Positions 44,178 through 63,652 are shown, counted from the stretch's first letter. The stretch is DNA of 64,000 bases from Candidatus Woesearchaeota archaeon (GCA_043812195.1 JBDRML010000001.1:3857-67856), one strand, 5' to 3'. Notes: generated by a model from the letters alone, not told the origin. Made by a program: numbers and translations.

Positions 44178-44179
44178 AT

Positions 44180-46940: not shown

Positions 46941-46975
46941 GTAAGCGAGAAGTGTCTCGCGCTCTCTTTAAGAAA
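46941..46975 (+). repeat. palindromic cassette-boundary repeat, copy 16
   Basis: GTAAGCGAGAAGTGTCTCGCGCTCTCTTTAAGAAAG. Confidence 0.85.
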
Positions 46976-47008
46976 GTATATAAATCAATTAAATAACATA
47001 ATCCTAAC

Positions 47009-47878
47009 ATGTTAGGAAGAAATCATGTTTCAATTTCATTAGCTACAATTATGCCTTTCTTAATACCTCTTATCTTTTTAGAATCAAATAATTCAATAAT
47101 ATATGGTTTTGCTTTTTTAATATCTATTCTTGTTGGATCTCTGCTACCCGACGCAGACTGTGGAGGAAAATCAAAACTCTATTACGATTTTAACATATTC
47201 TACCAATTAATTATTCCAATTACCAAATTAACTGTTTGGACATTTAAACTTTCAAGTGTTAAAAAAAAGTTGTCTACAAAGTTTTCAGAATTACAAGATG
47301 TAAATCATGAACATAGAGGGATAATGCATTCACCCATAGGAACGATAGTCAGTTCTTTTTTGTTAACTTTAATTATTCTTATCATAATGACACTTATTGC
47401 TAAAACTAATCTATTATTAGTTTTAATTATCTTTCTAGGATTAATTATTGGACAAATTCTACATTTATTAGAAGATTCCTGCACTGTTACTGGGATAAAT
47501 TGGATGTTTCCATTTGGAAAAAAAGAATTAAAAGGGCAAATATACACATTTGAGTGGAAATATCAAAATAAAAAAGATATCCGGCCGATGATTTATGTTT
47601 ATTCCCTGGTGGCTGTGTCCATTATATCCTTATTAGTAAACTCATTTGGGGCTGTGAATAATCTTTTTTTATATTATTTAATAACAACAATCGCAGTTTT
47701 GATAATTTGGATAATAATTATCAAGATATCTCAAAGTCAGTCTATTTTTTGGTATAGAGACGCCGAAAAAATAAAACAAATACAAAAAAAACAAAGAAAA
47801 GCTTTAAAAAAATTTACAGGAATAAAAAGAAAAAAACACAAAAAAAGATCATATAAACATTTTAAGTCCAGATATTAG
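47009..47878 (+). CDS. polytopic membrane protein (metal-dependent hydrolase-like?)
   Basis: 6+ TM helices; LLPDADCGG; the 3' end runs into the long-form repeat. Confidence 0.4.
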   Translation: MLGRNHVSISLATIMPFLIPLIFLESNNSIIYGFAFLISILVGSLLPDADCGGKSKLYYDFNIFYQLIIPITKLTVWTFKLSSVKKKLSTKFSELQDVNHEHRGIMHSPIGTIVSSFLLTLIILIIMTLIAKTNLLLVLIIFLGLIIGQILHLLEDSCTVTGINWMFPFGKKELKGQIYTFEWKYQNKKDIRPMIYVYSLVAVSIISLLVNSFGAVNNLFLYYLITTIAVLIIWIIIIKISQSQSIFWYRDAEKIKQIQKKQRKALKKFTGIKRKKHKKRSYKHFKSRY

Positions 47879-47940
47879 GATTTTGAATTCTATTGGGGTA
47901 GTTAAGTAAGCGAGAAGTGTCTCTCACTTTCTTTTAGAAA
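47838..47940 (+). repeat. palindromic cassette-boundary repeat, copy 17 (long form)
   Basis: gatcatataaacattttaagtccagatattaggattttgaattctattggggtagttaagtaagcgagaagtgtctctcactttcttttagaaa. Confidence 0.85.
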
Positions 47941-47979
47941 AATATTTATACACCCCAAAATAATCAAAATTATAAAAAA

Positions 47980-48102
47980 ATGGCAAACATATGTGAAAAA
48001 TGCGGAAAATTAGTAAATGAATGGACTAAAATAACGCATGATGAAGATGGAGAAAACAAATACTTTTGTAATGGAGACTGCTTTAGTGAATACATTAATT
48101 AA
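47980..48102 (+). CDS. small zinc-ribbon protein (40 aa)
   Basis: MANICEKCGKL...FCNGDCF; not in the track. Confidence 0.4.
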   Translation: MANICEKCGKLVNEWTKITHDEDGENKYFCNGDCFSEYIN

Positions 48103-48120
48103 AAAAGGAGGCAATTTAAA

Positions 48121-48273
48121 ATGGATGAAATAAAACACATATATTCGATGGTTATGCAAAGAGATGACAAATCTCTAAAAAACTACTTAAAAAATAAAAG
48201 AAATCAGGAAAAAGCAAGAGCTAGAAAAATAAGAATAGTAGCAAATGCAGTTCATAGGATTTATACAGCTTAA
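48121..48273 (+). CDS. small basic protein (50 aa)
   Basis: aaaggagg 8 nt upstream; not in the track. Confidence 0.35.
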   Translation: MDEIKHIYSMVMQRDDKSLKNYLKNKRNQEKARARKIRIVANAVHRIYTA

Positions 48274-48312
48274 ATAATAAATAATTAGAAGTATATTAAA
48301 TTTTATGTTTTT

Positions 48313-48349
48313 GTAGCGAGAGGTTTTTCGCGCTCTCTTTTAGATAAGA
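48313..48349 (+). repeat. palindromic cassette-boundary repeat, copy 18 (last + strand copy)
   Basis: GTAGCGAGAGGTTTTTCGCGCTCTCTTTTAGATAAG. Confidence 0.85.
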
Positions 48350-48933
48350 AAGGCTATTACATTATTTACAAAATGCCCTATCATAGCAGGCAATAAATTT
48401 CTTTTATCAACTAAATAAAGAATCCCAAACAATAGACCTCCAAGATATCTTAAATCAATTTTTCCTGCATGTTGCAAAGAAAAAAACAAAGATATTATCA
48501 ATAACCCAAAAAGAATTACAGGCAATCTATATTTTTTAAAACCAATAAATTTAGTTGATACAGTAAAATAATCAAAGGAAAAAATTACAAACAATCCCAA
48601 TAAAATTCCTCTAAATATAACTTCTTCACTGAATGGAGCTAAAAAAACAGAAGAAAATAATTCATAAAACCCAGTATAGTGCACAAAAGAAGAGTTAGTA
48701 ATAGACAAAATTACCAACCAATAAATCAAAACTAAAACAATCGGCAGCAAAATAGAAGTGTAAATATTATTATATCTTATCTTACAAGAGTCTTTTAATC
48801 CATTCCACCATTTTTCTAAATTCTTATTTGATTTAAATTTATTCGAAATCTTATTTCTAAATAAAAATAATAAAAGATATATTAAAATAATAAAAAAATC
48901 CCAAAATAATCCACTCCAAAAATTTACAGACAT
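48340..48933 (-). CDS. CPBP-family (CAAX) intramembrane metalloprotease
   Basis: EExxxR (FSEEVIFRG) and a distal HxxxN/H (IGHFVNNVIAF). Confidence 0.7.
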   Translation of the reverse strand: MSVNFWSGLFWDFFIILIYLLLFLFRNKISNKFKSNKNLEKWWNGLKDSCKIRYNNIYTSILLPIVLVLIYWLVILSITNSSFVHYTGFYELFSSVFLAPFSEEVIFRGILLGLFVIFSFDYFTVSTKFIGFKKYRLPVILFGLLIISLFFSLQHAGKIDLRYLGGLLFGILYLVDKRNLLPAMIGHFVNNVIAFLI

Positions 48934-48955
48934 TCTTCTTTCTTATAAAAATTAA

Positions 48956-49303
48956 TTAAGTCTTTCCGCCACATTTTAGCCATAATCTCTTAAATTCTAT
49001 TTTTTCTTTTTTAAGTTCTTCATTTAGTATTTTTCTGTGTTCTCTTTCTTCTTCTCTTTCTTTTTCTTTTAGTTTTTTTGAGAATTCTATTGAACCAGGA
49101 TTTAATTCATTAAAAATCGCTTCCCATTCTTTTGGATATTTCCTTTCTAAATCATTTTGCATATATCCTGCATGTATACCCATATATTTTCCAAAAACAA
49201 ATAACTCAATATCCATTAAATCTCTAATATAATCTGCATTCTTCTCATTCCATTTAAGGCCTTTTATTTTGTTTCTTACAAATTTTGATTTTATTTTTTT
49301 CAT
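48956..49303 (-). CDS. hypothetical protein
   Basis: ORF track. Confidence 0.4.
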   Translation of the reverse strand: MKKIKSKFVRNKIKGLKWNEKNADYIRDLMDIELFVFGKYMGIHAGYMQNDLERKYPKEWEAIFNELNPGSIEFSKKLKEKEREEEREHRKILNEELKKEKIEFKRLWLKCGGKT

Positions 49304-49357
49304 TTCTACAACCCAAATATCTCTTACCTATCTGTTAATTTTTCTTGTTTCAAGCTT

Positions 49358-49888
49358 TTACCATTCCTTTAGTTTTTCAATACTTTTTCTATCTAATATC
49401 CTAATCAACTGAAGTTCAGGATCATTTGTATAACTTTGGCTTAAAGCATGCTCTTTTATTTTTTCTGAAATAAATTCTAAATCAATGAAATTTGTTTTTA
49501 ACTCTTTCAATGTTTTTAGTATTTTATCTTCTTCTTTTATTGGCAGTTTTCTTGAAAAAATGTAAAATTTAAAATCACTCCCATATTTATCTTTGATATA
49601 TTTTTCAGTTTTTTCACGATCTTCAAAAACAGCTTTAAACTTCCCTTGATGTTTTTTATTTTTTTCTTCAATATTATTATTTGACATATGCAATAATCTT
49701 GGGCTCCAACTCTTAACCTCACCCACAATCTTATCTGGAAGGCCATCATTTCTTTTTTTAGGCCTAATAGCTATAATATCAATTTCTAGTTTTCTATTTT
49801 TTTCAGCTTTAAATTTTTCATTCATTCTTACAAAGAATCCTTTAGATTCTAAATACAATTTAACCAATTTTTCATTTGCTTCTTCCAT
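49358..49888 (-). CDS. PD-(D/E)xK-like nuclease-fold protein
   Basis: EIDIIAI ... VGEVKSW fits the D..(D/E)xK spacing; weak. Confidence 0.35.
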   Translation of the reverse strand: MEEANEKLVKLYLESKGFFVRMNEKFKAEKNRKLEIDIIAIRPKKRNDGLPDKIVGEVKSWSPRLLHMSNNNIEEKNKKHQGKFKAVFEDREKTEKYIKDKYGSDFKFYIFSRKLPIKEEDKILKTLKELKTNFIDLEFISEKIKEHALSQSYTNDPELQLIRILDRKSIEKLKEW

Positions 49889-49892
49889 TTTT

Positions 49893-50150
49893 TTACCCCA
49901 AATAACTTTTTCTTTTATTTAATTCTTTTTTAGTTTCTTCTTCAAAAGGAACAACTTCACCTGCAACATCATCTAGATCTACTTCATCAAATTCTTCTAT
50001 TTTAGCTTTTTTTCCTTTATTTGCTAAAAAATGAGGTTCTACTTGCCTAACTTTTCTTATTGTTATTCCTTTATCATCAACAATCATTGCTACTGCTATT
50101 GGTGCTCCAAAAGTTTGCTTTAAAGATTTTAATTTTTGTTCTATTTTCAA
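49893..50150 (-). CDS. hypothetical protein
   Basis: ORF track. Confidence 0.35.
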   Translation of the reverse strand: MKIEQKLKSLKQTFGAPIAVAMIVDDKGITIRKVRQVEPHFLANKGKKAKIEEFDEVDLDDVAGEVVPFEEETKKELNKRKSYLG

Positions 50151-50289
50151 GGTTATTGGGATATATAAGTTATTTATAAGCTTTTCTATCCTTTTATAGA
50201 TATTTCTTATATTTTATAGAAAGATATATAAACTTTATTAATTTCTTAAAAAAGAAAGCTTTTTAAGTAAAAATAAAGGCTTCAAAATC

Positions 50290-50892
50290 ATGAATAAAAA
50301 AGTACTAATCGCAACACTGTATTCACCAGAACCAGTGTTATTAGCTGCCAATAGGCTTGGCCCAGATAGATTAATACTATTAATAGATAAAAAATCTAAT
50401 AAACACCAAGAAGATTCTCTAAAAGTGATTAATAACTCTCTGGGTAGAATTATAGATGTTAAACCAATTAAAGTTGATGTTTATGACATTGTAGGGGTTG
50501 CTAAAAAGGTTGTAGAAGTCATAGATATGCAGCCTAGAGATGATAGATTATTTGTAAATGTAACCTCTGGTAGAAAAACACAAGCTCTTGGTTTGTTATT
50601 TGGAGCTTATGCTAGACATGATAGAATTAATAAAATAGCTTATAATCCTGAAGAAGATAAGAATTCTGTTGTTTATTTGCCTAGATTGTCTTTTAAGTTA
50701 AATGAGAGCCAAAAAAAGATATTAGATGTAGTTTCAGAAGTTCCAGGTGGTAATTATGCTGAATTAGCTGAAAAGGCCGGTGTTTCAAAAGCAATGTTTT
50801 ATAGGGCTACAGATGAGTTAAAAGACATGGATCTTGTATTAAATGAAGATGGTTTAAAATTAACAGATGCAGGAGAGATAGCGAGGTTGTAG
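50290..50892 (+). CDS. Rossmann-like (CARF/Csa3-like?) + C-terminal wHTH regulator
   Basis: N-terminal KVLIATLYSPEPVLLAANRLGPDRLILLI; C-terminal wHTH ILDVVSEVPGGNYAELAEKAGVSKAMFYRATDELKDMDLV. Confidence 0.4.
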   Translation: MNKKVLIATLYSPEPVLLAANRLGPDRLILLIDKKSNKHQEDSLKVINNSLGRIIDVKPIKVDVYDIVGVAKKVVEVIDMQPRDDRLFVNVTSGRKTQALGLLFGAYARHDRINKIAYNPEEDKNSVVYLPRLSFKLNESQKKILDVVSEVPGGNYAELAEKAGVSKAMFYRATDELKDMDLVLNEDGLKLTDAGEIARL

Positions 50893-50908
50893 GGGGGCTA
50901 AATTAAAA

Positions 50909-53773
50909 TTGACAAACGAAAGATTGACAAAATCACAAAGTACTGCAGTAAAATATTTTGCAAATCCTTTGGTAATTGTTGCTGGACCAGGATCTGGAAA
51001 GACAAAGGTCCTAATAAATAAAGTAAAATATCTTATTGAAAGTAAAAAAATGGAGCCTTCAAAAATAGTATTAACAACATTTACAATAAAAGCAGCAGAA
51101 GAATTAAGAAAAAAGATACAAAATTTGATAAAAACAGAAGATATTAGTTCAATGTTTATTGGGACTATTCATTCATATTGTGACAATATTATTAAACAAT
51201 ATGGCGGAACAAAAAATATTCCATTAGATTATTCAGTTCTTGATGATATTCAAAGATATATTTTTTTAAGAAAACATTTCAAAGTGCTTGGGTTGGATAA
51301 AGAAGAATTAAAATTATTAAAAAAACCTAGAAGTGATGGAGAACAAATTGGAGATGTTCTTAGATTTTATGATGAATTAACGGAGAATTTAGCAGATATT
51401 CCCGAATTATTAGAATATATCAAAGAAAATAAATCTGAGCTATTTGAGAACACCGAAGAAAAATATGATTCTGCAATCAATTTAATAAATTCCTATGAGA
51501 AATATGTTGAATTATTAAAAAAATATAAATTGATCGATTTTGCATTTCTTGAAAAAACAACTTATAATTTATTAAATGACAAAGCTATTTTAGAAAGTAT
51601 TAGAATTAAAACTGAATATGTTTTAATAGATGAGTTTCAAGATATTAATCCCCTTCAATGGAAATTATTTTCCAAAATTGTTGAAAAAGATAAAAAGATT
51701 ACCGTGGTGGGAGATAAAAACCAAAGTATTTATGGGTTTAGGGGGGCAAATCCTAATATTTTTGATAAGTTCAAAGTTGAATTTAAGGAAGCAAAACAAA
51801 TCGAACTCGATGTAAATTTTAGATCAAAGAAAAATATAATTGATTTTGGTAATGATTTTCTTTCTGGAAGAGAAACAATTAAGATAAAGGCAGATAGGGA
51901 GAATGAAAAAACAAGAATATATATGATTGATGGAGATTATGAATCTGATTCTGCAGAAAGAATATTAGAATTAATAAAAAATTTATACAAAGAGAAAAAA
52001 ATAAAAAAATATGGTGATGTAGCACTATTATTTAGAAGTGTAAAGAATCATGGTAAGAAATTTATTGAACTATTAGATAAAAAATTTCCAGGAATACCTT
52101 ACTCTGTCAGCGGCGGAACAAATTTTTTAGAAAATGAAGAAATACGTTCAACAATATTTTTTATGTCTTATCTTTATGGTATCGAGGATGAAAAAATATC
52201 TAAGACTTTAATAAGTTATGATAATTTTATTGATGCTCTCGATACAGAATTATTTAAAATATCTAAGAATACTATAAAAATATTAAAAGAAAATCCAAAT
52301 TTAGACACAAAAAATATTGCTAATGTAAATATATTAACAAAAAAAGGCATTAGTGAAAAAGATGCAATAAAAATAATTTCAATACATAAATTAAAAAATA
52401 AAAATGCTAGTAAAAAATTATCTATTGAGGAGACTTTTTACAAGTTTTTAAGTGAAACAGAATGTATAGTAGATTACAAGAAAAAAATTTCTGCAATGAC
52501 TAAAAAAATGATGTTCAATCTTGGTTATTTTTCACAATTAATACAAGACTATTCAACATATTATAAAAAAAGTAATTTCAAGGGATTTTTATATGTATTA
52601 AAAGATTTGCCGGAAAATTTGAAACTAGAAGGAGAAAATGATTCATTCATAGCAGACAATCCAGAAAATTTAAAATTAATGACTATTCATCAAGCAAAAG
52701 GACTTGAATTTCCAGTGGTTATAATCCCTTCTTTAGTTACGAGAAGATTTCCAAATAAGATGTTAACTAGAAATTTAATAGATCTTCCAGAAAAATTTAA
52801 TTTATATGAACCTTATGATAGATTAAAAGAAGAAGAAAATTTGTTTTATGTTGCAGCCACAAGAGCCCAGGATAGTTTAATTCTATCAAAATTTAAAAAC
52901 CATAGAACTACGAGGGTTAGTGCATCAGAATTTGTTGATAGAATTGAAAAAAATCTAGTCGAAATAAAAAAATTAGAAGATTATTCGGAAAAAATAAAAG
53001 AAAGAAAAATAGAAGACGAGGGATTTCATGTAATAGATTATAGCTCAATTAGCACATTTATAGACTGCCCAGAGCGTTTCAATTTGAGATATATTTATGG
53101 GTTTGTTGCTGGAGAAATTTATGTCCAAAAAATTGGAAAGATCTATCATAATGCTCTTGCAAAATTAAATTCTAATATTAAAGAGAAGAAGAAAATAGAT
53201 GATAAATTAATAAAAGAGATTTTAGATGATTCTTGGATAACTTTGAAGAAAGATGAACGTCAAGATGAGATTATGAAGAAAAAATTTCTTAGAGAAATAA
53301 AAAGATATTATCAAACAATGACTAATAATGAGTTAAAAAAAATAAAAGAAATAGAAAAACCTATTGGTTTAAATGTTGATAATATTCGCATACGTGGTAG
53401 GTTGGATCTACTTTATGAAAATGAAAATGGAGAAAATGTTTTGATGGACTTTAAATCAAGAAAATTAGATGCGATCGGTGAAACGCATGTTGATAAACAA
53501 TTAATAACATATGCAATGGCTTTGGAAAAGGAAGGTTGGAATATAAATAAATTAATTGCATATCCTATTCAAGAAAATAATTTTAAACCAGTAGAGGGAG
53601 AAATAAGTTTTGGCAATGACGATAAGAAAAAAATCAAATCATCTGTAAAAAAGTTTGTTGGTGCAGTAAAAAACGAAACATTTAATACTTCAGAAGTAAA
53701 ATCAGGATTCTGTGAAAAATGTCCCTATAAATTGATCTGTTTATATAATAAATCAAGGAGTCTAAATGATTGA
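50909..53773 (+). CDS. UvrD-family SF1 helicase fused to a Cas4/RecB-like Fe-S PD-(D/E)xK nuclease
   Basis: GPGSGKT, DEFQD, VGDKNQSIYGFRGA, TIHQAKGLEFP, ATRAQ; C-terminal DCPERF...LDLLY...MDFKSRK...QLITYAMAL and CEKCPYKLIC (Cys cluster). Confidence 0.8.
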   Translation: MTNERLTKSQSTAVKYFANPLVIVAGPGSGKTKVLINKVKYLIESKKMEPSKIVLTTFTIKAAEELRKKIQNLIKTEDISSMFIGTIHSYCDNIIKQYGGTKNIPLDYSVLDDIQRYIFLRKHFKVLGLDKEELKLLKKPRSDGEQIGDVLRFYDELTENLADIPELLEYIKENKSELFENTEEKYDSAINLINSYEKYVELLKKYKLIDFAFLEKTTYNLLNDKAILESIRIKTEYVLIDEFQDINPLQWKLFSKIVEKDKKITVVGDKNQSIYGFRGANPNIFDKFKVEFKEAKQIELDVNFRSKKNIIDFGNDFLSGRETIKIKADRENEKTRIYMIDGDYESDSAERILELIKNLYKEKKIKKYGDVALLFRSVKNHGKKFIELLDKKFPGIPYSVSGGTNFLENEEIRSTIFFMSYLYGIEDEKISKTLISYDNFIDALDTELFKISKNTIKILKENPNLDTKNIANVNILTKKGISEKDAIKIISIHKLKNKNASKKLSIEETFYKFLSETECIVDYKKKISAMTKKMMFNLGYFSQLIQDYSTYYKKSNFKGFLYVLKDLPENLKLEGENDSFIADNPENLKLMTIHQAKGLEFPVVIIPSLVTRRFPNKMLTRNLIDLPEKFNLYEPYDRLKEEENLFYVAATRAQDSLILSKFKNHRTTRVSASEFVDRIEKNLVEIKKLEDYSEKIKERKIEDEGFHVIDYSSISTFIDCPERFNLRYIYGFVAGEIYVQKIGKIYHNALAKLNSNIKEKKKIDDKLIKEILDDSWITLKKDERQDEIMKKKFLREIKRYYQTMTNNELKKIKEIEKPIGLNVDNIRIRGRLDLLYENENGENVLMDFKSRKLDAIGETHVDKQLITYAMALEKEGWNINKLIAYPIQENNFKPVEGEISFGNDDKKKIKSSVKKFVGAVKNETFNTSEVKSGFCEKCPYKLICLYNKSRSLND

Positions 53774-56675
53774 CAAAGAAAAATTAAAAAAATTTAAAGA
53801 ACAACTTAGAAAAATGTTTAGAAGTGATGAACCAGATTTCAACTGGGGGGTTTATAGGATAATAAAACAAAAGAATCAAGATGTTGATGATTTTATTGAA
53901 AATGAGATTCCAAATATAATCAAAGATAATTTAAAAGTTTTATATGCAAAAAGTGTTGAAAGTTTAGAAAAAGAACTTGATGAGATTAAATCAGATTGTC
54001 AAAAATTGGGTGTTGATTATGAAACAAATGAGAGGCATAAAGAAAAATTAAAAGAAAAGAAAGAATTAACAGAAATTGGAGATATTGAATCCCAAATTTA
54101 TAATGATTTATTGGAATTTTTTTCTAGGTATTTTATAGATGGGGATTTTATTTCTAAATTCTATTACAAAAATGACCAATACATGGTTCCTTACGATGGT
54201 TCTGAAACTTATTTGCACTGGGCAACAAAAGATCAGTATTATATAAAAACCTCTGATGTTTATAATAGATTAAGTATCAATGCAGGAAAATTTAATATAA
54301 TATTTAGGGTTGTTCAAGCAGATCAAGAAAAAGGCAATGTTAAAGCTAAAGGTGATAAATTTTTTGTTTTAGATAAAAATGCTTTTGAACTTAATAAAGA
54401 TACAAATGAGTTTTTTGTTAATTTAAATAATATTGTTGGTGATGATGAAATAAAAGAAAAAGGTAAAAATAAATCTGAAATACAGGAAAAATTAAACGAA
54501 GAAATACTTAATGAATTAAAAAATGAACTAGAAAAGAATAATATCAAATGTAATGAAGATTTTGAAAAGGTTTTGAAAACTTTCCAAAAAAGATATACTA
54601 AAGATTTTTTCATACATAAAAATTTGAAAGAATTTTTAAGTGGTGAGCTAAAAACTTATGTAAAAAATGAGATTTTTGATCTTGATAAAGTTATAGATAT
54701 AGAGATAAAGATAAATAAAGAGTTGATAGTTCAATCTCAAACTTTGAAAAAGATTGCAGATAAAATAATTGAAAGACTTGCATCTATTGAAGATCTTAAA
54801 AGGAAAGTTTGGGAAAAGAAAAAGTTTATTTTTGATACGGGATACTGCATGACTTTAGATTATATAAATAAAAAATATTATAAAGATGTTTTAAAGAATA
54901 AAAAACAAATAGCCGAATGGGTCTCTTTAGGTTTTATAAAAGAAAGCATGTTAAATGAGAAATATTTAGAAGAAAATCCCACTTTAGTTATTGATACTGC
55001 TTTTTTTGATATTGACTTCAAATACAAAATATTATCTGAAATTGATGATTTGGATGAAAAAATTAATGGTATTTTAATTAATTCGGAAAATTTCCAGGCA
55101 TTGAATCTGTTATTAAATAAATACAAAGAGAAAATTAAGTGTTGTTATATAGATCCGCCATATAATACTGGAAATGATGGGTTCTTGTATAAAGATGGAT
55201 TTAATCACAGCAGTTGGCTAAGTTTAATGAATGATAGATTAATATTAACGAAAGAATTATTGAATAATAATGGGGTTTTTTTTAGTAGTATTAATGATAT
55301 TGAGTTAAAAAATTTAAATAAAATAGCAGACTCCATATTTGGAAATGAAAATTTCATCGTAAATTTAGTCTGGGAGAATAAAGAAGGGGGAGGTAGTTCT
55401 GATAGTAGATTTTTCAGAATCAAGCACGAATATGTTACTTCTTATTCAAAAAATACAAATACATTAAAACTTGATGGAGATATTAAAGAAGAAGACGAAG
55501 CTTATAATTATAATGATAGGTTTGTAAAAGAAAGAGGCAAATATAAATTAATAAAATTAAATAGCTTCAGTATAAGATCTTCACCTAGCCTACAATATGA
55601 AATTGAACTTCCCAATGGTGAAAAAATTACTCCTCATGAAGGCGGAAAAAAAGGTTGTTGGAGATGGAATGAAGATCAATTTAAGTGGGGTTTAAAGAAC
55701 GAATTTATTGAATTCAAAAAAAATGCTGAAGGAAAACTTTGGGTTTATACAAAACAATACTTTAAAGTGGATCATAAGGGAAATGAGATAATTAGAAGTG
55801 TTCCATATAGGGCGGTTATATCTAAGTTTTCTAGTACCCAAGCAACAAAACAATTAGAAAAATTATTTGGAGATAAACCATTTGCATACTCAAAACCAAC
55901 CGATTACATTAAGTTTTTATTAAACTTAAGCATAAATCAGAAATTAAATGATAATTTTTTAGACTTTTTCGCTGGTTCAGGAACTACAGGTCATGCAGTA
56001 TTAAAACTAAATAAAGAAGATAGAGGAAATAGAAAATTTATTCTCGTAGAAATGGGGCAATATTTCGATACTGTTCTTAAACCCAGAATATTAAAGGTAA
56101 TTTTCTCTGATAATTGGAAAGAGGGAAAACCATTAGACAATAAGGGATCTGAAAAACAAATTATAAAATATCAAACACTAGAACAATATGAAGATTCATT
56201 AGAAAACATACAATTCAAACAAACAGATTTAAGGGGATTGGATAAAGTGGACAAGGAAACACTATTTAAATATGATTTCAATGAAGTACCAAAAAAAAGT
56301 AAAACTTTTCTTGGAGCAGATATAGAAAAAAATTGGAGAGATTTTAGTATTTTAACACTAGATAAAAACTTAAAAGCAAATCCAATAAAAGTTGACCTAA
56401 TTGAAACTTTTAATTACTTAATAGGGATGTGGATTGATAAATATCAAATAAAGGAAGACAAACAAAGAGAATATATTGTAATAAAAGGTAAGATAAAGGA
56501 TAAACCTTCCATAATCATTTGGAGGGACAACAAAAATTTGATTCCAGAAAAAGATAAAAAATTCATAGAAGAAGAAATAATTGAAGGTGAGAAAGTTGAA
56601 AATATCTTTGTAAATTCAGATTGTATGATAAAAGGAGCAAAACATATTTTTAATGAGATGAGAAAAAGATTATAA
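53766..56675 (+). CDS. Type III restriction-modification Mod subunit (beta-class N6-adenine methyltransferase) with ~430 aa N-terminal extension
   Basis: motif IV CYIDPPYN precedes motif I DFFAGSGTTGHA (beta-class order); overlaps the upstream gene by 8 nt. Confidence 0.8.
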   Translation: MIDKEKLKKFKEQLRKMFRSDEPDFNWGVYRIIKQKNQDVDDFIENEIPNIIKDNLKVLYAKSVESLEKELDEIKSDCQKLGVDYETNERHKEKLKEKKELTEIGDIESQIYNDLLEFFSRYFIDGDFISKFYYKNDQYMVPYDGSETYLHWATKDQYYIKTSDVYNRLSINAGKFNIIFRVVQADQEKGNVKAKGDKFFVLDKNAFELNKDTNEFFVNLNNIVGDDEIKEKGKNKSEIQEKLNEEILNELKNELEKNNIKCNEDFEKVLKTFQKRYTKDFFIHKNLKEFLSGELKTYVKNEIFDLDKVIDIEIKINKELIVQSQTLKKIADKIIERLASIEDLKRKVWEKKKFIFDTGYCMTLDYINKKYYKDVLKNKKQIAEWVSLGFIKESMLNEKYLEENPTLVIDTAFFDIDFKYKILSEIDDLDEKINGILINSENFQALNLLLNKYKEKIKCCYIDPPYNTGNDGFLYKDGFNHSSWLSLMNDRLILTKELLNNNGVFFSSINDIELKNLNKIADSIFGNENFIVNLVWENKEGGGSSDSRFFRIKHEYVTSYSKNTNTLKLDGDIKEEDEAYNYNDRFVKERGKYKLIKLNSFSIRSSPSLQYEIELPNGEKITPHEGGKKGCWRWNEDQFKWGLKNEFIEFKKNAEGKLWVYTKQYFKVDHKGNEIIRSVPYRAVISKFSSTQATKQLEKLFGDKPFAYSKPTDYIKFLLNLSINQKLNDNFLDFFAGSGTTGHAVLKLNKEDRGNRKFILVEMGQYFDTVLKPRILKVIFSDNWKEGKPLDNKGSEKQIIKYQTLEQYEDSLENIQFKQTDLRGLDKVDKETLFKYDFNEVPKKSKTFLGADIEKNWRDFSILTLDKNLKANPIKVDLIETFNYLIGMWIDKYQIKEDKQREYIVIKGKIKDKPSIIIWRDNKNLIPEKDKKFIEEEIIEGEKVENIFVNSDCMIKGAKHIFNEMRKRL

Positions 56676-56676
56676 A

Positions 56677-59600
56677 ATGGAAAAAAAATATAGTGAAGAC
56701 CTAAGTAATTTGTTATCAACTTCAAGAATACTTTCAAAATTATTGGGTTTTGATGATCAACATCAAATACTGAAAAAATTTAATGATGCTAATTTAACAT
56801 ATGATTTTTTAGAAGGAAAAAGTAATTTAATAGATTTATTAATAGGATATAAAAAAACAAAAGAAATTGATTTAGATATCATAACAGAATCAATGTTGTT
56901 AATGTTTGATGAAAATATAAGAAAACATTTAGATCACATAAATAAGTATAGAGAAGATAAAATAGAACCAAGAAACTTTCAATATCTTGCTTTATTGTTT
57001 TCTGAAATTTTTTTGTATTTTAAATTTAATGAAAATGATTTTTTAGAGATTTTAAATGAGTATGTAGACTTACTAAATAAAAATAGCATTGAAAAATTTG
57101 ATTATTATAAAAAAGAAGATTTAAATAAAATTTGTTTTTGGATGGCGACAGGATCTGGAAAAACAATAATCATGCACATTAACTTCTTACAATACTTACA
57201 TTACAATCCAAAAATAAATAAAATAATTTTAATAACTCCCAATGAAGACATGTCTAAACAACATAAAGATGAATGTGATGAAGATAATATAAACTCTTCA
57301 ATAATTGACAGTTCAAATTTAAGATATTCGTCACTCAAAAACTCCATAAATATTTTTGATATAAATAAAATTAAAGATAAATCCGAAAAAATAACAAAAA
57401 ACAAAGGGAAGACAATAGATTACAAATCATTTGGAAAAAATAATTTAATTCTTGTTGATGAAGGGCATAGAGGTTCAAAGGGAGATAAGTGGATGAAATT
57501 AAGAAAAGGAATTTCAGAAGAAGGTTTTACCTTTGAATATAGTGCAACATATAATGATTTCCTTGATGAAAAAAATAAAAATAACACAGATGATTACAAA
57601 AGAACAATTATTTTTGATTTTTCATATAAGTATTTTTATCATGAAGGCTACGGCAAAGATTATGATATTTCATATGTAACTGAGAAAGATAAATATACCA
57701 ATAAGATGAGAGAATATATAATGTTGGGGAATCTATTAAGTTTTTATGAACAAAAAAAATACTTTAAAGAATATAACAAAGAATTAGAAGATTTCAATAT
57801 TGAAGATCCATTATGGTTGTTGGTTGGTTCAAGAGTAAAAGAAGATAATAAGTTAGATGGCACAACAAAATCAGATATTGCAAAATTTGTATATTTTTTA
57901 AATGAACTAACGAACGAAGGATTAGACGAAAAAATAGAAAAAATATTGACTCAAAAAACCGGAGTAAAAAAGAAAAATACCAACAAAGATATTTTTACAA
58001 ACAGATATAATTACTTGAGAGAACTATTAAAAAATAGATTCAATGAAAACTATTCTAAATTGATTGATGATATTTTTAAAGTTGTTTTCTATGCAACACC
58101 AAATTCTGATCTAATTTTAACAGATATAAAAAATGGAGAGGGGGAATTAGCATTGAGTTACTCAAGTGGAAAAAAACCATTTGGTTTAATTTATGTTGGC
58201 AAGGGAAGTGAAAAGGACTTGATTAAAAAAATTAGTGAGAATCATAAAAATATAAGAAAAGAAAGTGATAAAATTGGTAATTCTTTATTTCCTAGTCTAA
58301 AAGAAACAAAGGAAGAAATCTATCCACTTAATTTATTAATTGGTGCAAAAAAATTTATAGAAGGGTGGAATAATTTTAGAGTTTCTTCAATATTACTCCT
58401 TAACTTTGCAAAGGGTGCGGGTGCATCAGCAATTCAATTATTTGGAAGAGGAATAAGATTGAGGGGATATGATCGTAGTTTAAAAAGATCTGGTTTTAAT
58501 AATATTGAAGCACCAAAGAATATTAAAATAATAGAGACACTAAACATTTATGGGATTGAAGCTCACTATATGCAAAAATTTCTAGATGATATTGGAACAG
58601 ATTTAGAAATTACTAGCACAATTGAAAAAGACATACAAGTAATCCCAGATAAATACGGATTAAAAAAAGAATTCGGAAAAGAGTTGTACTACATAGATAA
58701 CCCCACAGAAAAAGAAGTAGAGTTGACAAATAGATTAACAATATGTGGTTTGAAAAAGATGCAAATAACTTTAGATACGTATAATTATGGTATGTCTTCA
58801 AAATCTAAAGGAATTAGCAAAGAAGAAGCAAAAGAAAAAAAACAAACAGTTTCTAAACAAACATACTATAATAACTTTAAAGATTTTATAGATTGGAATG
58901 AAATATACTCAAATGTATTAGAATACAAAAGAAATGTCGGTTCTAGACAAACAACAAATAATTATTATTCGAATTTCTATATTGATGGAATAGATGATTT
59001 GAAAAATGTATTTGAGAATAAAGATATAGCGATAACTGTATACGGGGAAGAAAAGGAATTTTATATGGATAATAAATCTATAAAAGAATTGTATGAAATG
59101 AGAGAGAAAATCCAGAACATATATACTGACATAATTAAAAAATTGATAAAGTTAACTCATACTGCAAAAATAAGAGGTAAAACAGAAGCAGCATATAAAT
59201 TGACTAAATTAGAAGATAAACACATGATTGATGATTATAAATTAATAATTGAACTAAAAGAAAATAAAGTGTTGGCGGAAGATCTTGGTTTAAAAAATAT
59301 TTTCGATAAATTCATTGAAAAAGAAAGAATATTAGATTTAGAGGATGATGAATTAAATGACTTTGTAGAAAAAGAACAAGATAAAAAAGAGTTTATATTA
59401 AAATTTAATAAACATTTATATTTTCCTCTTTTAGTTTCTCATGAAAAAGAAAAATATTCTTTGTCTCCAAAAGGTTTGATTTCTTCCGAAGAATCTTTTG
59501 TAAGAAAACTAAAAAAATACATTGAAACTAATGAGAAATCGATAAAAAATAAAAAAGTGATGTTGTTGAGAAATCATGAAAATAAAGGCATAGGATTTTA

Positions 59601-59934
59601 TATGAAAACAAAAAAATTCTATTATGACTTTATTTTATGGGTGATTGATGAAAATGAAAAACAAAAAATATCATTTATAGATCCAAAGGGATTAGTTCAT
59701 GGGGATGAAGAAAAAGAAGAATTCAACAAAAATGAAATAAAAAAAATAGAAGAAAAAATCAAAGAAAAAGAAAATAAGGATTTTGAATTGCTTACATATA
59801 TTATAACTCCAACGTCAAAAGAGGATATAGCTAGTGCCATGATAAGAGAAGATCCGATTGGCTCAAATGTTTATTTAGAAGAAGATATTTACGATTTATT
59901 TAATAAACTGTTTGAGATTAATCAAGAAGATTAG
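56677..59934 (+). CDS. Type III restriction Res-like subunit (SF2 helicase + C-terminal PD-(D/E)xK)
   Basis: MATGSGKT, LVDEGHRG, QLFGRGIRL; C-terminal ...VIDENEKQKISFIDPKG; start is 2 nt after the Mod stop. Confidence 0.7.
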   Translation: MEKKYSEDLSNLLSTSRILSKLLGFDDQHQILKKFNDANLTYDFLEGKSNLIDLLIGYKKTKEIDLDIITESMLLMFDENIRKHLDHINKYREDKIEPRNFQYLALLFSEIFLYFKFNENDFLEILNEYVDLLNKNSIEKFDYYKKEDLNKICFWMATGSGKTIIMHINFLQYLHYNPKINKIILITPNEDMSKQHKDECDEDNINSSIIDSSNLRYSSLKNSINIFDINKIKDKSEKITKNKGKTIDYKSFGKNNLILVDEGHRGSKGDKWMKLRKGISEEGFTFEYSATYNDFLDEKNKNNTDDYKRTIIFDFSYKYFYHEGYGKDYDISYVTEKDKYTNKMREYIMLGNLLSFYEQKKYFKEYNKELEDFNIEDPLWLLVGSRVKEDNKLDGTTKSDIAKFVYFLNELTNEGLDEKIEKILTQKTGVKKKNTNKDIFTNRYNYLRELLKNRFNENYSKLIDDIFKVVFYATPNSDLILTDIKNGEGELALSYSSGKKPFGLIYVGKGSEKDLIKKISENHKNIRKESDKIGNSLFPSLKETKEEIYPLNLLIGAKKFIEGWNNFRVSSILLLNFAKGAGASAIQLFGRGIRLRGYDRSLKRSGFNNIEAPKNIKIIETLNIYGIEAHYMQKFLDDIGTDLEITSTIEKDIQVIPDKYGLKKEFGKELYYIDNPTEKEVELTNRLTICGLKKMQITLDTYNYGMSSKSKGISKEEAKEKKQTVSKQTYYNNFKDFIDWNEIYSNVLEYKRNVGSRQTTNNYYSNFYIDGIDDLKNVFENKDIAITVYGEEKEFYMDNKSIKELYEMREKIQNIYTDIIKKLIKLTHTAKIRGKTEAAYKLTKLEDKHMIDDYKLIIELKENKVLAEDLGLKNIFDKFIEKERILDLEDDELNDFVEKEQDKKEFILKFNKHLYFPLLVSHEKEKYSLSPKGLISSEESFVRKLKKYIETNEKSIKNKKVMLLRNHENKGIGFYMKTKKFYYDFILWVIDENEKQKISFIDPKGLVHGDEEKEEFNKNEIKKIEEKIKEKENKDFELLTYIITPTSKEDIASAMIREDPIGSNVYLEEDIYDLFNKLFEINQED

Positions 59935-60625
59935 CTTCTCTAAAACTATAATAATTCCTTTTATGCTGATCGCCAATAATAATATGGTCACTTAATTTTA
60001 TGTCAAATAATTCACCTATTTTTTTCAAACGATTTGTAATTCTTCTATCATCCGTAGAAGGTTTAGAATCTCCAGAAGGATGATTATGAACTAATATTAT
60101 AGAATTAGCACTTTCTTTTATTGCTTCTTTAAAAACTTCTCTAGGATGCACCAAACTACTGTCTAAAGTGCCTATAGAAATAACTTTTTCTTTAATAACC
60201 TTGTTTTTAGTATCTAAATATAAACATAATAAATATTCTTTTTTCTTACTTCCATACTTATCTATAAAATAATCATAAACATCCTTAGCACTTCTAATAT
60301 ATCTTTTATAACCTTTATTTTTTAATCTATTATGCCTTTTACTTAGCTCTATCAGACTCTGCAATTTCATAACCTTCATAAAATCTGGATGATCTGCCCT
60401 CTTGCCTTTACAAATAAAATTGACCAACTCTCTGTACCCAAGATGCTCAATCTCATCTAACTTATATTTTTTTAAAATTCTATTGCTGATCTCTAAAGAA
60501 TTATCTTCTTTTGTATTATCCCAAAATAAGATAGATAATAACTCCACATCATCTAAACTTTCAACGCCATTTTTTGTCAGTTTAAACTTAGGAAGGTTAT
60601 ACCAGGGAATATCACTATTTTTCAT
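59918..60625 (-). CDS. radC: RadC-family JAB-domain protein
   Basis: ELLSILF... plus JAMM motif HNHPSGDSKPSTDD. Confidence 0.8.
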   Translation of the reverse strand: MKNSDIPWYNLPKFKLTKNGVESLDDVELLSILFWDNTKEDNSLEISNRILKKYKLDEIEHLGYRELVNFICKGKRADHPDFMKVMKLQSLIELSKRHNRLKNKGYKRYIRSAKDVYDYFIDKYGSKKKEYLLCLYLDTKNKVIKEKVISIGTLDSSLVHPREVFKEAIKESANSIILVHNHPSGDSKPSTDDRRITNRLKKIGELFDIKLSDHIIIGDQHKRNYYSFREANLLD

Positions 60626-60918
60626 AAGATTTTAGAAACCTAAACCAGTTTATATAAATTTATGAGAAGAAATAGCAACTAAATGATCATCTTTAAATAT
60701 CCCAAAAACAATATACTCTCATGTTAGATGAAGAAACAATCAAATCATTAAAAAAAGAATGGTTAAACAGACTACAAAACAAAGGCGGAATAATCTACAA
60801 ATATATTCAAGAAGAATTAATAGACTCTTTTATTGAAGATATTAAAACTCCCAATTGATATAATTTAAGCATATAATAAAACTTATAAACCAAGAAAAAA
60901 CACGTAAAAACAGTAAAT

Positions 60919-61641
60919 ATGGTAAAAAAACACACATCCGGATTCGCAATCGCTTCCTTAATTTTGGGACTCCTAGGTGTATGGGGGATAGGTTCAATTT
61001 TAGCTATAATTTTTGGAGCTGTAGCACTAAACCAGATAAAAAAAGACAAAAATCTGGGAGGGGAAGGAATGGCAAAATGGGGATTAGCTTTAGGGATTAT
61101 AGGTCTTATAGTCTATACTATAATATTTGCTAGCCTTGGAACTCTTTTTGGAATTGGTAGTTTAATTTCAGCAACTGATGCAACAGGTTATGCTGTTGTA
61201 GATAATAGTGAAAATTCAGAAATTAAAGATTCAGAAATTTCAACAAAACAACAAGAGGACCAACCAGAAGAAAATGAGCCTGAACAAAAAATTAAGAGCG
61301 CAACAATAAATATTGATAAAGTTCAAATCCAATTAGCCAACTTATATCCAATTAGAGTTACTGTGGCAAACACAGGAGATGTAACTGTCCGTCCAAAATT
61401 TGATATTTATGTTTATGATTCCGGAGATAATGAAGTTTGTTATGGCAGTCCAATGATAGATGAATTTACTAGTATTTATTCTGGCAATGACAAAACTGGA
61501 GAATTGACTCTAATGGGTTGTATGTTTACTAAAGATGGAACTTATACTCTAAAAATAGAATTATTAGACTCTGACTATAATAAATTAGATACAGATACAA
61601 AAGACTTTTCAGTTGATTATTGGGACCAATTTAATCTATAA
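60919..61641 (+). CDS. DUF4190-like membrane protein with extracellular C-terminal domain
   Basis: FAIASLILGLLGVWGIGSILAIIFGAVALNQIKKD pattern. Confidence 0.5.
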   Translation: MVKKHTSGFAIASLILGLLGVWGIGSILAIIFGAVALNQIKKDKNLGGEGMAKWGLALGIIGLIVYTIIFASLGTLFGIGSLISATDATGYAVVDNSENSEIKDSEISTKQQEDQPEENEPEQKIKSATINIDKVQIQLANLYPIRVTVANTGDVTVRPKFDIYVYDSGDNEVCYGSPMIDEFTSIYSGNDKTGELTLMGCMFTKDGTYTLKIELLDSDYNKLDTDTKDFSVDYWDQFNL

Positions 61642-61698
61642 AAGAGATGTGAAGTACTTTAGATCACCAACAACATTTAAAAACATAAATATTCACTT

Positions 61699-62514
61699 AT
61701 GATTATGACAAATCTAAAAATTCCTGAAAAAATAAGAAATTTAGACAATATGTTCTGGAAGAATAGAAGATTATTCAAAAAAAAAGTGAAAAATATTAAC
61801 AAAATATTTGAACTAAAGAAAAATAATGATTTGTTCAAAGATGATCATCCGCCAACATTTTTCAGTGGAAACATACACTCAAAAAAAATAAAATATATCT
61901 TCATTGGATTAAATCCAGGTTATAATGAGGAACATAACAAAAAAGAGTATAATTGGAGAAAAAATAGCAAAGAAAAATCTAAAAAACAAATGGAAGATTG
62001 CATAAATTTATTTGAGTATTTTTATGAAAATAAATGGCCAGGATATTATACAAGAATATTAAATATAGTAAAAGATTTTTCAAAAAAAGAGAAAAAGAAA
62101 GAAAGGTATGAATACTGTAAAAAATATCTAATCAACATCGATGCTTTCCCATTTCATTCAAAAAGTTTTAAAATTAAGATAGATAACTTAACCCCTCAAC
62201 AATATATAGAATTTTTTAAATACTGGAATTCTTCAAAAGAACTTATTAAAATGATTAAATCTAAATATATAATAATTTTTGGAAAAGCAAATTTGAAGCT
62301 TTTTATGATGGACCCATCAATAGACAAAACAAAATTAAAACTTATAAAAAAATTTAAAAAAGAAAGAGGGGGATTTGTGCATATTTACAAAATTATCTTT
62401 GCTGATAAAAAAACAATATTAGTAGACACATTTTTAGGGGGTGGAAAAAATATGTCCTTGAACAAGAAAAATATTAAAGAAATTAGCAATTATATAAGAA
62501 GTATATTAAAATAA
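61699..62514 (+). CDS. hypothetical protein
   Basis: ORF track. Confidence 0.4.
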   Translation: MIMTNLKIPEKIRNLDNMFWKNRRLFKKKVKNINKIFELKKNNDLFKDDHPPTFFSGNIHSKKIKYIFIGLNPGYNEEHNKKEYNWRKNSKEKSKKQMEDCINLFEYFYENKWPGYYTRILNIVKDFSKKEKKKERYEYCKKYLINIDAFPFHSKSFKIKIDNLTPQQYIEFFKYWNSSKELIKMIKSKYIIIFGKANLKLFMMDPSIDKTKLKLIKKFKKERGGFVHIYKIIFADKKTILVDTFLGGGKNMSLNKKNIKEISNYIRSILK

Positions 62515-62560
62515 CTCTTACAATAAAAAATCTTGTTTCCTCAAATTAAAAACAATTAAT

Positions 62561-63016
62561 CTAAATATTTTGAATTTGTTTTTCAAATCCATATTTTAAA
62601 ATCACTCCTTGTAAATTAGATTTGGTAATACTAACACCCCACTCAGGTTCACTCTTTTTTCCATTATAGTCATTCCCAACTAGGAAAGAAGAAGGTTTAT
62701 TCTCCCAATCTAAAGATGGTACGAGGAGCGATATTGGTTCCTTCCCATTCTCAAATAAAACTAATGCAAGCAATAGATTTTTACTAAGATGAAAATGTTT
62801 CTTTTTCATAAATGTATAATTATAATTTCTTACAGATTTAACTTGGATATCAAAATACTCATCTTTATTTTCCCTTACAATAAAATCTATACCTTTATCA
62901 TCTATTTCTGAAGAATAAACATCAAAACCAAGCTTTGTAAACTCCATTTTAGCAAAATATTCTCCAAATCTCCTTAATTGTAAGTGGTTTAAATCAGACC
63001 ATTTATTATTTGGCAT
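62561..63016 (-). CDS. PD-(D/E)xK-like nuclease-fold protein
   Basis: GIDFIV ... FDIQVKS motif spacing; weak. Confidence 0.35.
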   Translation of the reverse strand: MPNNKWSDLNHLQLRRFGEYFAKMEFTKLGFDVYSSEIDDKGIDFIVRENKDEYFDIQVKSVRNYNYTFMKKKHFHLSKNLLLALVLFENGKEPISLLVPSLDWENKPSSFLVGNDYNGKKSEPEWGVSITKSNLQGVILKYGFEKQIQNI

Positions 63017-63055
63017 AAAATTGCTATAATCATCAAATATAAATAACTTCCACTC

Positions 63056-63090
63056 TCAAAAGAGAGCGCGAGAAACCTCTCGCTTACTAA
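63056..63090 (-). repeat. palindromic cassette-boundary repeat, copy 19 (inverted orientation)
   Basis: reverse complement reads GTTAGTAAGCGAGAGGTTTCTCGCGCTCTCTTTTGA; abuts the truncated radC copy. Confidence 0.85.
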
Positions 63091-63587
63091 CAACAATCTC
63101 TAGGATGTACTAAACTACTATTCAAAGTCCCCACACTAACAACTTCTTCTTTAATAATTCTATTTTTAGTATCTAAACACAAACAAATAAAATACTCTTT
63201 CTTCTTATTTCCATATCTATCTCTTAATAACAAATAAACATCTTTAGCACTTCTAATAACTCTTTTATACCCATTATTTTTAGTTTTATTATATCTTTTA
63301 CTTAACTCAATCAAACTTAATAATTTCATAAGTTTCACATAATCTTTAGTTTCAACTTTATTTCTTTTATTTTTAATAAAATCTAAAATTTCCCTATTTC
63401 CCAATTCATCTATTTCATTTAAATTATAATTTTTAAGCAGTCTATTGCTTAATTCTAAAGCAGATTCACCTTTTTCCCCAATTCCAAAGATAATAGACAA
63501 TAATTCCGCACTATCTAAAGATTCAGCCCCATTTTTAAGAATTTTTGAACTAGGTCTGTTATAATTTGGAAGATCAAAGATTTTCAT
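63087..63587 (-). pseudogene. truncated second copy of radC (lacks the JAMM catalytic region)
   Basis: N-terminal 160 aa is paralogous to 59918..60625, including ~65 bp of shared 5' flank (ttcataaga(g/t)tttagaaacctaaaccagtttatataaatttatgagaagaaatagcaactaaa); the ORF ends exactly at the repeat. Confidence 0.6.
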
Positions 63588-63652
63588 AAGAGTTTAGAAA
63601 CCTAAACCAGTTTATATAAATTTATGAGAAGAAATAGCAACTAAAAAATCAG

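Follow-up and report, generated by a model that had tools for sequence, protein, structure and literature searches.

Introduction

Archaea of the DPANN group (Diapherotrites, Parvarchaeota, Aenigmarchaeota, Nanoarchaeota and Nanohaloarchaeota) have genomes of ~1 Mb and are host-dependent, and little is known of the ways in which they gain and rearrange their accessory and defence genes. A stretch of 64,000 nucleotides from a groundwater Woesearchaeote of this group (GCA_043812195.1 JBDRML010000001.1:3857-67856; hereafter the window) raises this question in a concrete form. A short repeat, here called R, recurs between small groups of accessory genes, and two copies of it in opposite orientation enclose a 14.7 kb segment that carries defence genes; at the second of these copies a radC gene is cut short. 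A preliminary description of the window, made from the sequence alone, took this arrangement to suggest a repeat-mediated rearrangement, either an inversion, a transposition or the insertion of a cassette into radC. Is the inverted pair of repeats the scar of such an event on the segment, or does it mark something else?

Here, we report an analysis of the window together with ~45 kb of metagenome contigs from the same population. R forms two arrays of opposite polarity that face each other across the segment, whole flanks are exchanged at R between strains, and radC is truncated at R with respect to an intact allele. The account that we favour, by a modest degree of confidence, is an integron-like cassette system with a short dif-like site, a recombinase acting in trans and two convergent arrays with the segment between them.

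Results and discussion

R forms two convergent arrays

The core of R, AGCGAGAGGTTTCTCGCGCTCTC, has 14 matches in the window at three or fewer mismatches, against 0.00 expected from 100 dinucleotide shuffles. With an nhmmer profile, 16 plus-strand copies (22547-48346) and exactly one minus-strand copy were found; sites are named here by the first position of their core (Table 1). One polarity is thus common to 16 of the 17 copies, whatever the strand of the adjacent genes, and minus-strand genes lie among the plus-strand repeats at 27823-28463, 38573-39094, 42008-42622, 45848-46861 and 48340-48933. The last plus copy, R48315 (core 48315-48337), has a GTAG-type left arm and one mismatch, a single change located in the spacer, and the minus copy, R63062 (core 63062-63084), has none. 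No copy of R, whole or partial, occurs within 48338-63061. The preliminary description had listed these two sites as copies 18 (48313-48349, plus) and 19 (63056-63090, minus); both cores lie inside those spans, but the numbering was two too high. Downstream of R63062, in the orientation of R, a TATA-like box is followed by a DUF4365 gene, which is the usual cassette layout.

Table 1. Repeat arrays, inter-array genes and other main features (window coordinates; ~, approximate)
Feature	Position	Strand	Remarks
Plus cassette array	22551..48338	+	16 R copies, spacing 315-4329 bp
Plus R core starts, first eight	22555, 24110, 28439, 28754, 29401, 33585, 34873, 35377	+	
Plus R core starts, last eight	37809, 39142, 39567, 41985, 42669, 46944, 47909, 48315	+	42669 has a 1-nt indel
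R48315, final plus-array site, left segment boundary	48311..48338	+	TTGTAGCGAGA-GGTTTT-TCGCGCTCTCT
Inter-array segment	48339..63060		14.7 kb, R-free
Rce1/CPBP-like	48340-48933	-	
Three unknown open reading frames (ORFs)	48956-50150	-	
CasR/Csa3-like CARF-winged helix-turn-helix (wHTH) regulator	50290-50892	+	
UvrD-PD-(D/E)XK helicase-nuclease	50909-53773	+	
Type III Mod	53766-56675	+	
Type III Res	56677-59934	+	
Full radC paralogue	59918..60625	-	235 aa, JAMM motif HNHPSGD
DUF4190	60919-61641	+	
Unknown ORF	61699-62514	+	
DUF4365	62561-63016	-	
R63062, inverted perfect-consensus copy, innermost minus-array site	63061..63088	-	AGTAAGCGAGA-GGTTTC-TCGCGCTCTCT on the minus strand
Minus array	63062, ~64788, ~65874	-	3 R copies, spacing ~1.1-1.7 kb
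Truncated radC	63087..63587	-	166 aa, NCBI MFH1376084, annotated 'UPF0758 domain-containing protein'
radC promoter/5' region	63588..63651	-	Duplicated at 60626-60689
XerA-family tyrosine recombinase, catalytic domain only	5562..6188	+	208 aa, sole recombinase gene seen in the window
Intein-containing XPD/Rad3-type helicase gene	30391..33576	+	Between R29401 and R33585

The sequence past 64 kb had been proposed as a place to look for more minus-orientation repeats, and two are present there (L019, L076). Contig L019 overlaps 63422-64000 (97.8% identity) as well as contig L008 (98.7%) and extends the window rightward: three minus-strand genes are followed by R(-) at ~64788, which is preceded, in the orientation of R, by a radC 5' fragment of 84 codons with the same radC upstream region; next come a toxin-antitoxin-like pair and R(-) at ~65874. 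L076 overlaps L019 (99.2%) and adds 7.3 kb that is free of R and encodes accessory-type proteins, namely a PD-(D/E)XK nuclease, a pyrimidine-dimer glycosylase, TspO and a nucleotidyltransferase. Owing to the two R(-) copies beyond the window, a second, inverted array is seen to face the plus array, with R63062 as its innermost member. The inverted pair R48315/R63062 is therefore explained most simply as the innermost sites of two convergent arrays.

Flanks are exchanged at R in the natural population

Public metagenome contigs were scanned with GCGAGANNNNTCTCGCGCTCTC, which gave 90 loci. Twelve of these are AT-rich, stem from two samples, Ga0180007 and Ga0180009, and match parts of the window at 97-100% identity. 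Four contigs (L022, L057, L078 and L083) are colinear with the window through R sites, and in five (L008, L031, L063, L066 and L079) the partner switches exactly at R. L008 corresponds to 63058-64000 (97.7%) and carries other cassettes to the left of R(-), in the form of a small membrane-protein cassette, a decayed R, a unit of an XPD 3' end with R(-), a phospholipase D (PLD)-nuclease cassette and another R(-); the junction at R63062 is, to judge from this contig, polymorphic. L066 contains the XPD end and R33585 and then a different right flank, L079 matches 28434-29363 with a different left flank, and in L031 the left flank of R39142 is joined to another spacer and another right flank. L063 joins 41505-41984 via R to 39165-39822, which would be exactly the product expected from recombination of R39142 with R41985, either an excised circle or a tandem duplication. 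Its crossover lies within AGCGAGA, both spacer variants derive from the right-hand partner, and the window arrangement (L078) is present in the same sample. Strain variants differ in whole flanks at R and not in the presence or absence of R. R acts as a recombination site, at which flanks are swapped in the natural population.

Assemblers could produce similar switches, and it was considered whether R63062, or another R, is a chimeric joint between strains such that the segment does not exist in any one genome. Several strains with different cassette orders do coexist in the same samples, the exact DUF4365-R(-)-radC 5' junction occurs only in the window, and L008 diverges from the window 4 nt past the R63062 core. 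Nevertheless, we regard a chimera as improbable. R, at 28-30 bp, is shorter than the final k-mers and the reads of current assemblers; the DUF4365 flank has the usual cassette layout, so a repeat of minus polarity belongs there whatever stands on its other side; and the truncated radC with its R(-) was assembled independently in L008.

The segment between the arrays

The genes listed for the segment in the preliminary description, four on the minus strand, a helicase-nuclease/Type III island and radC, agree with the gene and domain annotation (Table 1). Its reading of the segment as rearranged held only in part: R does recombine in the population and radC is truly cut, but inversion or transposition of the segment found no support. 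In its explicit form, this explanation holds that 48.3-63.1 kb is invertible or was recently inverted (or transposed) through R48315 and R63062, the inversion cutting radC. R48315 and R63062 are indeed inverted with no R between them, R sites recombine in the population, and the four minus-strand genes abut the plus array. However, neither flipped-state junction appeared in any of the 12 same-population contigs, which is a weak test because the R48315 core (TTTCGC) escapes the search pattern. The two further R(-) copies to the right make up a whole array of that polarity rather than a lone flipped site. The junction of the radC 5' part with R stands among other genes in L008 and recurs in L019, so an inversion between R sites cannot have truncated radC; the truncated radC with R looks instead like a passenger or boundary of the minus array and not like an inversion scar. 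Furthermore, no target-site duplication was found flanking the segment. We consider a recent inversion or transposition unlikely, and the inverted repeat marks an array boundary rather than giving evidence of inversion. A composite transposon was likewise rejected for want of a target duplication.

Integrase-driven chromosomal inversions are known from Thermococcales (PMC5495485, reviewed in PMC8371274). The segment resembles shufflons and other invertible segments (Fim, Rci/sfx) in that inverted copies of a recombinase site flank it and inversion is expected if an enzyme acts on them; it differs in that no adjacent invertase and no second orientation were observed, and in that it holds 14.7 kb of defence genes and not a promoter or gene-tail switch. 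In homologue searches with the genes at its two ends, the Rce1-like protein on the left retrieved only the metagenome-assembled genome (MAG) itself, and the DUF4365 protein, apart from the MAG itself, retrieved relatives of at most 68% identity.

radC is truncated at R

Two copies of radC lie 3 kb apart in the same orientation. They share ~565 bp including the 5' flank (60123-60689 and 63082-63651) at 77-78% identity. The truncated copy covers only residues 1-54 of the 121 in the Pfam RadC JAB model, in addition to UPF0758_N, whereas the full copy covers 1-120. The truncated protein ends in LVHPRDCC*, its TAG stop abutting GTAAGCGAG of the repeat; the last three codons and the stop are supplied by the left arm of R, and HNHPSGD is absent. 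These comparisons bear out the earlier observation that a second radC shares ~560 bp with the first, halts at the inverted repeat and lacks the JAMM region. The full and truncated proteins are 59% identical (59-63%), and the full gene in the segment is a distinct paralogue and not the missing 3' remainder of the truncated copy.

An intact allele, P0243 (L177; 229 aa), was found in another metagenome within the 90% cluster of the truncated protein. It is 91.5% identical to the truncated copy over 165 residues and runs on to a normal C-terminus, and the truncation is therefore real. In the DNA alignment, homology of the truncated to the intact gene ends at CATCCTAGAGA, at the R junction, and the cut coincides with R to the base in three units, those of the window, L008 and L019. 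A plain local duplication of radC followed by decay, with R adjacent by chance, would account for two like-oriented copies 3 kb apart. However, the copies are only 77% identical in DNA and a far closer allele exists elsewhere, and truncation at R to the base recurs in three independent units while the chance expectation of R is zero. Copy divergence, the end of homology at R and the intact allele effectively refute simple duplication, which we regard as hardly credible.

At the junction, the native sequence GTTTTTAAAAGCG and the left arm of R, GTTGTTAGTAAGCG, are alike, and the native continuation AGTTTTTAAAAGCGCT resembles the left arm TTGTTGTTAGTAAGCGAG up to AAGCG. Since this is also the place of the L063 crossover, we infer, with moderate confidence only, that a cassette bearing R was inserted into radC at a pseudo-site. 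The 'UPF0758 protein' annotated in the MAG would then be a radC cut by cassette insertion.

The ~60 nt upstream of each radC (TTTAGTTGCTATTTCTTCTCATAAATTTATATAAACTGGTTTAGGTTTCTAAA; 60626-60689, 63588-63651 and L019 1661-1724) are 95-100% identical between paralogues; for the first two of these stretches the proximal 62 nt are 95% identical, and the coding regions 64-77%. This would be explained by strong constraint on a promoter or regulatory element, or else by gene conversion.

Truncated radC genes in two other Woesearchaeota lineages are likewise followed by variable accessory genes, of kinds also present at this locus: methyltransferase fragments, Fic, ParE, NosD-like and radical-SAM/SPASM genes. 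In the first (L171-L173), radC (10001-10588) is truncated to 195 aa directly past the JAMM motif, where it continues into an N6_Mtase fragment, with Fic, ParE, NosD-like and two radical-SAM/SPASM genes in the 8 kb downstream; no repeat was found at this truncated radC. In the second (L174-L176), the truncation of radC, to 129 aa, falls at a 27-nt GC-rich repeat other than R, TGTTGTAGACTCA..CGCCG.C.GGCT, which occurs twice in L174 (9130-9156 and 10360-10386; also in L175 and L176) and brackets 1.2 kb with a ParE toxin-antitoxin pair. The head of this repeat, TGTTGTAG, is common to the GTAG-type copies of R, and the repeat may be a diverged version of the R system. In this group, the 3' side of radC seems to act repeatedly as a variable hotspot. 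Tn554 of Staphylococcus aureus also inserts site-specifically into radC, at att554. The likeness is that radC is a recurrent target of a tyrosine-recombinase element; the differences are that host and element are unrelated to those of Tn554 and that radC is cut here at three different positions in three lineages.

Gene fragments beside R

Fragments of a second gene recur in the plus array. Pieces of the XPD 3' end (60-320 nt) abut R at 34806-34872, 39509-39566, 41662-41984 and 47842-47908, with one more in L008; the five are 83-96% identical and always adjoin R. The radC 5' fragments recur likewise beside R in the minus array. Such divergence argues against recent duplication in place, and it favours fragments carried as the tails of cassettes, which would have formed where R adjoined XPD or sat inside radC. 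The XPD intein carries a LAGLIDADG domain, and the essential-looking XPD gene formally lies inside a 'cassette'.

Architecture of the R site

Twenty-six distinct copies of R from the window and related contigs were aligned without gaps. The conserved unit is ~28-34 bp, with AGCGAGA, GT, TCT and CGCGCTCTC near-invariant, and common variation among the copies falls at two positions, R (G/A) and D (T/G/A). Read as 11-6-11, the unit is AGTAAGCGAGA-RGTDTC-TCGCGCTCTCT: the spacer takes in both variable positions (12 and 15), and 8 of 11 positions are complementary between the arms, AGTAAGCGAGA and AGAGAGCGCGA. This layout is that of dif-type tyrosine-recombinase sites (PMC8371274, PMC2958812), and R can be read as a core site of this type. 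The unit can also be read as a hairpin, GCGAGA/TCTCGC, with a 6-bp stem and a 4-nt loop whose bases are the variable positions; decayed copies lack compensatory stem changes and give nothing to choose between the two registers. The left arm has two forms, AGTA-AGCG and TTGT-AGCG, and is weakly G/T-rich further left; 9 of the 26 copies start with GTAG and the remainder with GTAAG. The GTAAGCG of R supplies the TAA stop of at least four ORFs, and a TATA-like box follows ~10 window copies at 10-30 nt, which is only suggestive in a window of 72% AT (28% GC).

Repetitive extragenic palindromic (REP) sequences and the bacterial interspersed mosaic elements (BIMEs) built from them have a GTAG-type head, a GC-rich palindrome and a species-specific sequence, and are served by REP-associated tyrosine transposases (RAYTs). 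R resembles them in its GTAG-type head, in its GC-rich and species-specific palindrome and in its intergenic position downstream of genes. It might accordingly be a REP-like palindrome, or another hairpin acting at transcript 3' ends or in regulation, with the rearrangements as by-products of homologous or microhomology recombination. A GC-rich hairpin headed by GTAG in about a third of the copies fits this, as do the position of R just past stop codons and often ahead of TATA-like boxes, the isolated copy downstream of a PmbA/TldD gene (L013, see below) and the different GC-rich repeat of L174-L176 with its TGTTGTAG start at a truncated radC. Unlike REP/BIME elements, however, R is clustered, of one polarity regardless of gene strand and placed at strain-variable cassette boundaries, and strains differ by flank swaps rather than by gain or loss of R. 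No RAYT or IS200-type gene was found, with no Y1_Tnp or OrfB match among ~85 ORFs of the window and population contigs; Rfam returned only a tRNA from the window and no match for R; the stem of degenerate copies shows no compensation; and a repeat of 28-30 bp is a poor substrate for homologous recombination. On these grounds a REP-like or hairpin origin seems doubtful.

Two further candidates were set aside. A serine recombinase crossing at the invariant central GT is disfavoured, as both variable positions in L063 follow the right-hand partner. A transcription-factor operator was rejected, since several copies of R lie between convergent 3' ends (R41985, R48315) and flank swapping would be left unexplained.

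A candidate recombinase

The XerA-like gene (Table 1) matches Phage_integrase with E=6.5e-36, and its best family is archaeal XerA (NF040815) at 150.9 bits; it falls below the 220-bit cutoff of that model because the catalytic domain alone is present. Its best PDB match is 4a8e, the XerA of P. abyssi, and against the integron-integrase model it scores 87.5 bits (cutoff 265 bits). A link between this gene and R is conjecture.

Its surroundings form a region of their own. Positions 1-7750 are plasmid- or virus-like, with small ORFs on the same strand, wHTH proteins, a JAB-like ORF (1024-1548), iteron-like tandem repeats (CAATCACTCAA units at 1890-2265 and CGAACATTCGCCGAAC units at 2921-3012), a histidine-kinase-like ATPase (4443-5063), a P-loop ATPase (7052-7747) and an HNH nuclease with an IscB-like HNH domain (6245-6607). 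This region may be an integrated element, the left end of which lies outside the window.

A model for the locus

The integron-like account can be put as a series of steps. R would be the core site at which a site-specific recombinase acts; the enzyme would most likely be of the tyrosine class, supplied in trans and possibly of the Xer type. Cassettes of 0.3-4.3 kb, mostly with a promoter-like TATA box of their own, would be inserted, excised and reshuffled at R, presumably as circles. Two arrays of opposite polarity would result, one of 16 plus sites (22.5-48.3 kb) and one of three minus sites running outward from R63062, and the 14.7-kb segment would be a defence-gene region left between the two innermost sites. 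In the minus array, a cassette bearing R would have recombined into radC at or near a sequence like the left arm of R, giving the truncated gene, and the unit of the radC 5' part and R would then have been carried or copied within cassettes, as the XPD 3' units were in the plus array. With their innermost sites inverted, the arrays would in principle allow the same enzyme to flip the segment. A more far-reaching version, with more than 50 kb of mobile cassettes, a 28-bp dif-like site, a Xer recombinase encoded elsewhere (the housekeeping enzyme or one from a mobile element) and two arrays around an invertible defence island, is put forward only tentatively.

Several observations weigh against this account. 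The evidence from the population consists of assembled contigs, which may be chimeric at repeats, and not of reads showing circles or the alternative orientation. A search for integrases gave no Phage_integrase match within the arrays, next to them or among the population contigs, and the XerA-like gene lacks an N-terminal domain and lies in the separate plasmid-like region, 16 kb to the left of the first R. The 6-4-6 hairpin register accounts for the variable positions of R as well as 11-6-11 does. At radC, the likeness of the pseudo-site is short and AT-rich, and a tblastn search for the missing 3' part brought up nothing except the full-length paralogue and a JAB ORF (1393-1494) that is unrelated. 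The R system is known from one population only: a pattern scan gave no match to R in 185,579 GTDB species-representative genomes or in IMG/VR, and an R-like array was missing from the surroundings of XPD in 80 related DPANN genomes; in the closest relatives at species level, too, no R array lies beside XPD.

Comparison with known systems

To our knowledge, the first archaeal integrons were described in 2022, exclusively through canonical attC sites. An attC site is 55-141 bp long, with the boxes R'' (RYYYAAC), L'', L' and R' (GTTRRRY) and an imperfect hairpin with extrahelical bases. As in integrons and clusters of attC sites lacking integron-integrases (CALINs), arrays of short imperfect palindromes of one polarity divide small cassettes of accessory genes here, the order and content of cassettes vary among strains, and the site often overlaps the stop of the upstream ORF, as attC does. 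With at least two sites of the same polarity less than ~4 kb apart as the measure of an array, the 16 plus and three minus copies of R qualify, and cassette variation by recombination at sites, another mark of integrons, is seen on comparing L008, L031, L063, L066 and L079 with the window. Integrons have an IntI-type integrase, with an IntI-specific insertion, next to attI at the array start, and no such integrase was found here; most archaeal CALINs likewise have no integrase nearby. Nevertheless, there are distinguishable differences. R is ~28-34 bp long, has neither the R''/L''...L'/R' layout nor a hairpin with extrahelical bases, and was rejected as a canonical attC because of its length and the arrangement of its boxes. 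Only some copies have a GTTRRRY-like box (GTTAAGT or GTTGAGT), which stands 5' of the core and has no paired RYYYAAC. Unlike integrons, the locus also has many multi-gene cassettes with TATA-like boxes, essential genes (XPD) between sites and two convergent arrays. Archaeal integrons, covering Nanoarchaeota, are described by Ghaly et al. (2022; PMC9668308).

The second comparison is with elements that use Xer recombination. The pdif modules of Acinetobacter plasmids and the integrative mobile elements exploiting Xer (IMEX), such as the CTX/TLC arrays at dif, belong here. R has no obvious likeness to the bacterial dif consensus, with its inner ATAA/TTAT. We know of no archaeal pdif or IMEX case, and the 19 R sites far exceed any IMEX stack known to us. 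Like the sites of Xer-dependent modules, R can be read as an imperfect palindrome of 28 bp, 11-6-11, in which the spacer varies, and it has no recombinase of its own (dif layout as in PMC5357621 and PMC8371274). A housekeeping Xer, encoded at another place, would act as recombinase, and successive integrations would build tandem arrays. Unlike the alternating inverted sites of pdif modules, R is direct within each array. In the logic of its arrays and in its behaviour in the population, the locus thus resembles integrons and CALINs, and in its site architecture it appears to resemble Xer modules.

If the more far-reaching version of the model is true, the locus would be an archaeal, attC-free analogue of a chromosomal super-integron. 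A system with short dif-like sites and no adjacent integrase would escape the attC- and intI-based definition of integrons, and cassette-type gene capture may then extend beyond integrons proper. A literature search for a DPANN cassette system returned nothing specific. The locus offers a concrete substrate in R, a candidate enzyme family in XerA and evidence of exchange from a natural population.

Cassette cargo and other features of the window

Three radical-SAM enzymes, one B12-binding and two SPASM-type, are encoded in separate cassettes (22635-24101, 35523-36881 and 42763-44025), and others hold numerous small ORFs of secreted or lipoprotein-like type. Judged by these genes, the cassettes seem to carry functions in peptide modification and at the surface, and not defence alone.

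Archaeal markers in the window include PAC2, a RadB-like protein, the intein-bearing XPD helicase and a topoisomerase; the XPD C-terminus is 65-70% identical to that of groundwater Woesearchaeota/Nanoarchaeia MAGs. In one related MAG (L094), a 71-nt direct repeat (2331-2401 and 5979-6049), its copies 86% identical and 3.6 kb apart, begins 35 nt past the XPD stop; this arrangement points to an element integrated at the 3' end of XPD through a different att sequence.

An isolated R was seen in L013 (1690-1712), just past the stop of the PmbA/TldD gene, in a housekeeping context (KsgA, a cytidylyltransferase and a KaiC-like ATPase) with DUF6036 nucleotidyltransferase-type genes downstream in the orientation of R. 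R may seed more sites elsewhere in this genome or in a sister genome.

The window contains a LAGLIDADG ORF of 383 aa (20687-21838, minus strand), which lies between the genes for topoisomerase and the RadB-like protein. In L083, which is otherwise 99.5-99.9% identical, 20677-21905 is replaced by ~320 nt (1365-1684); the difference is a presence/absence polymorphism of a free-standing homing-endonuclease-like gene.

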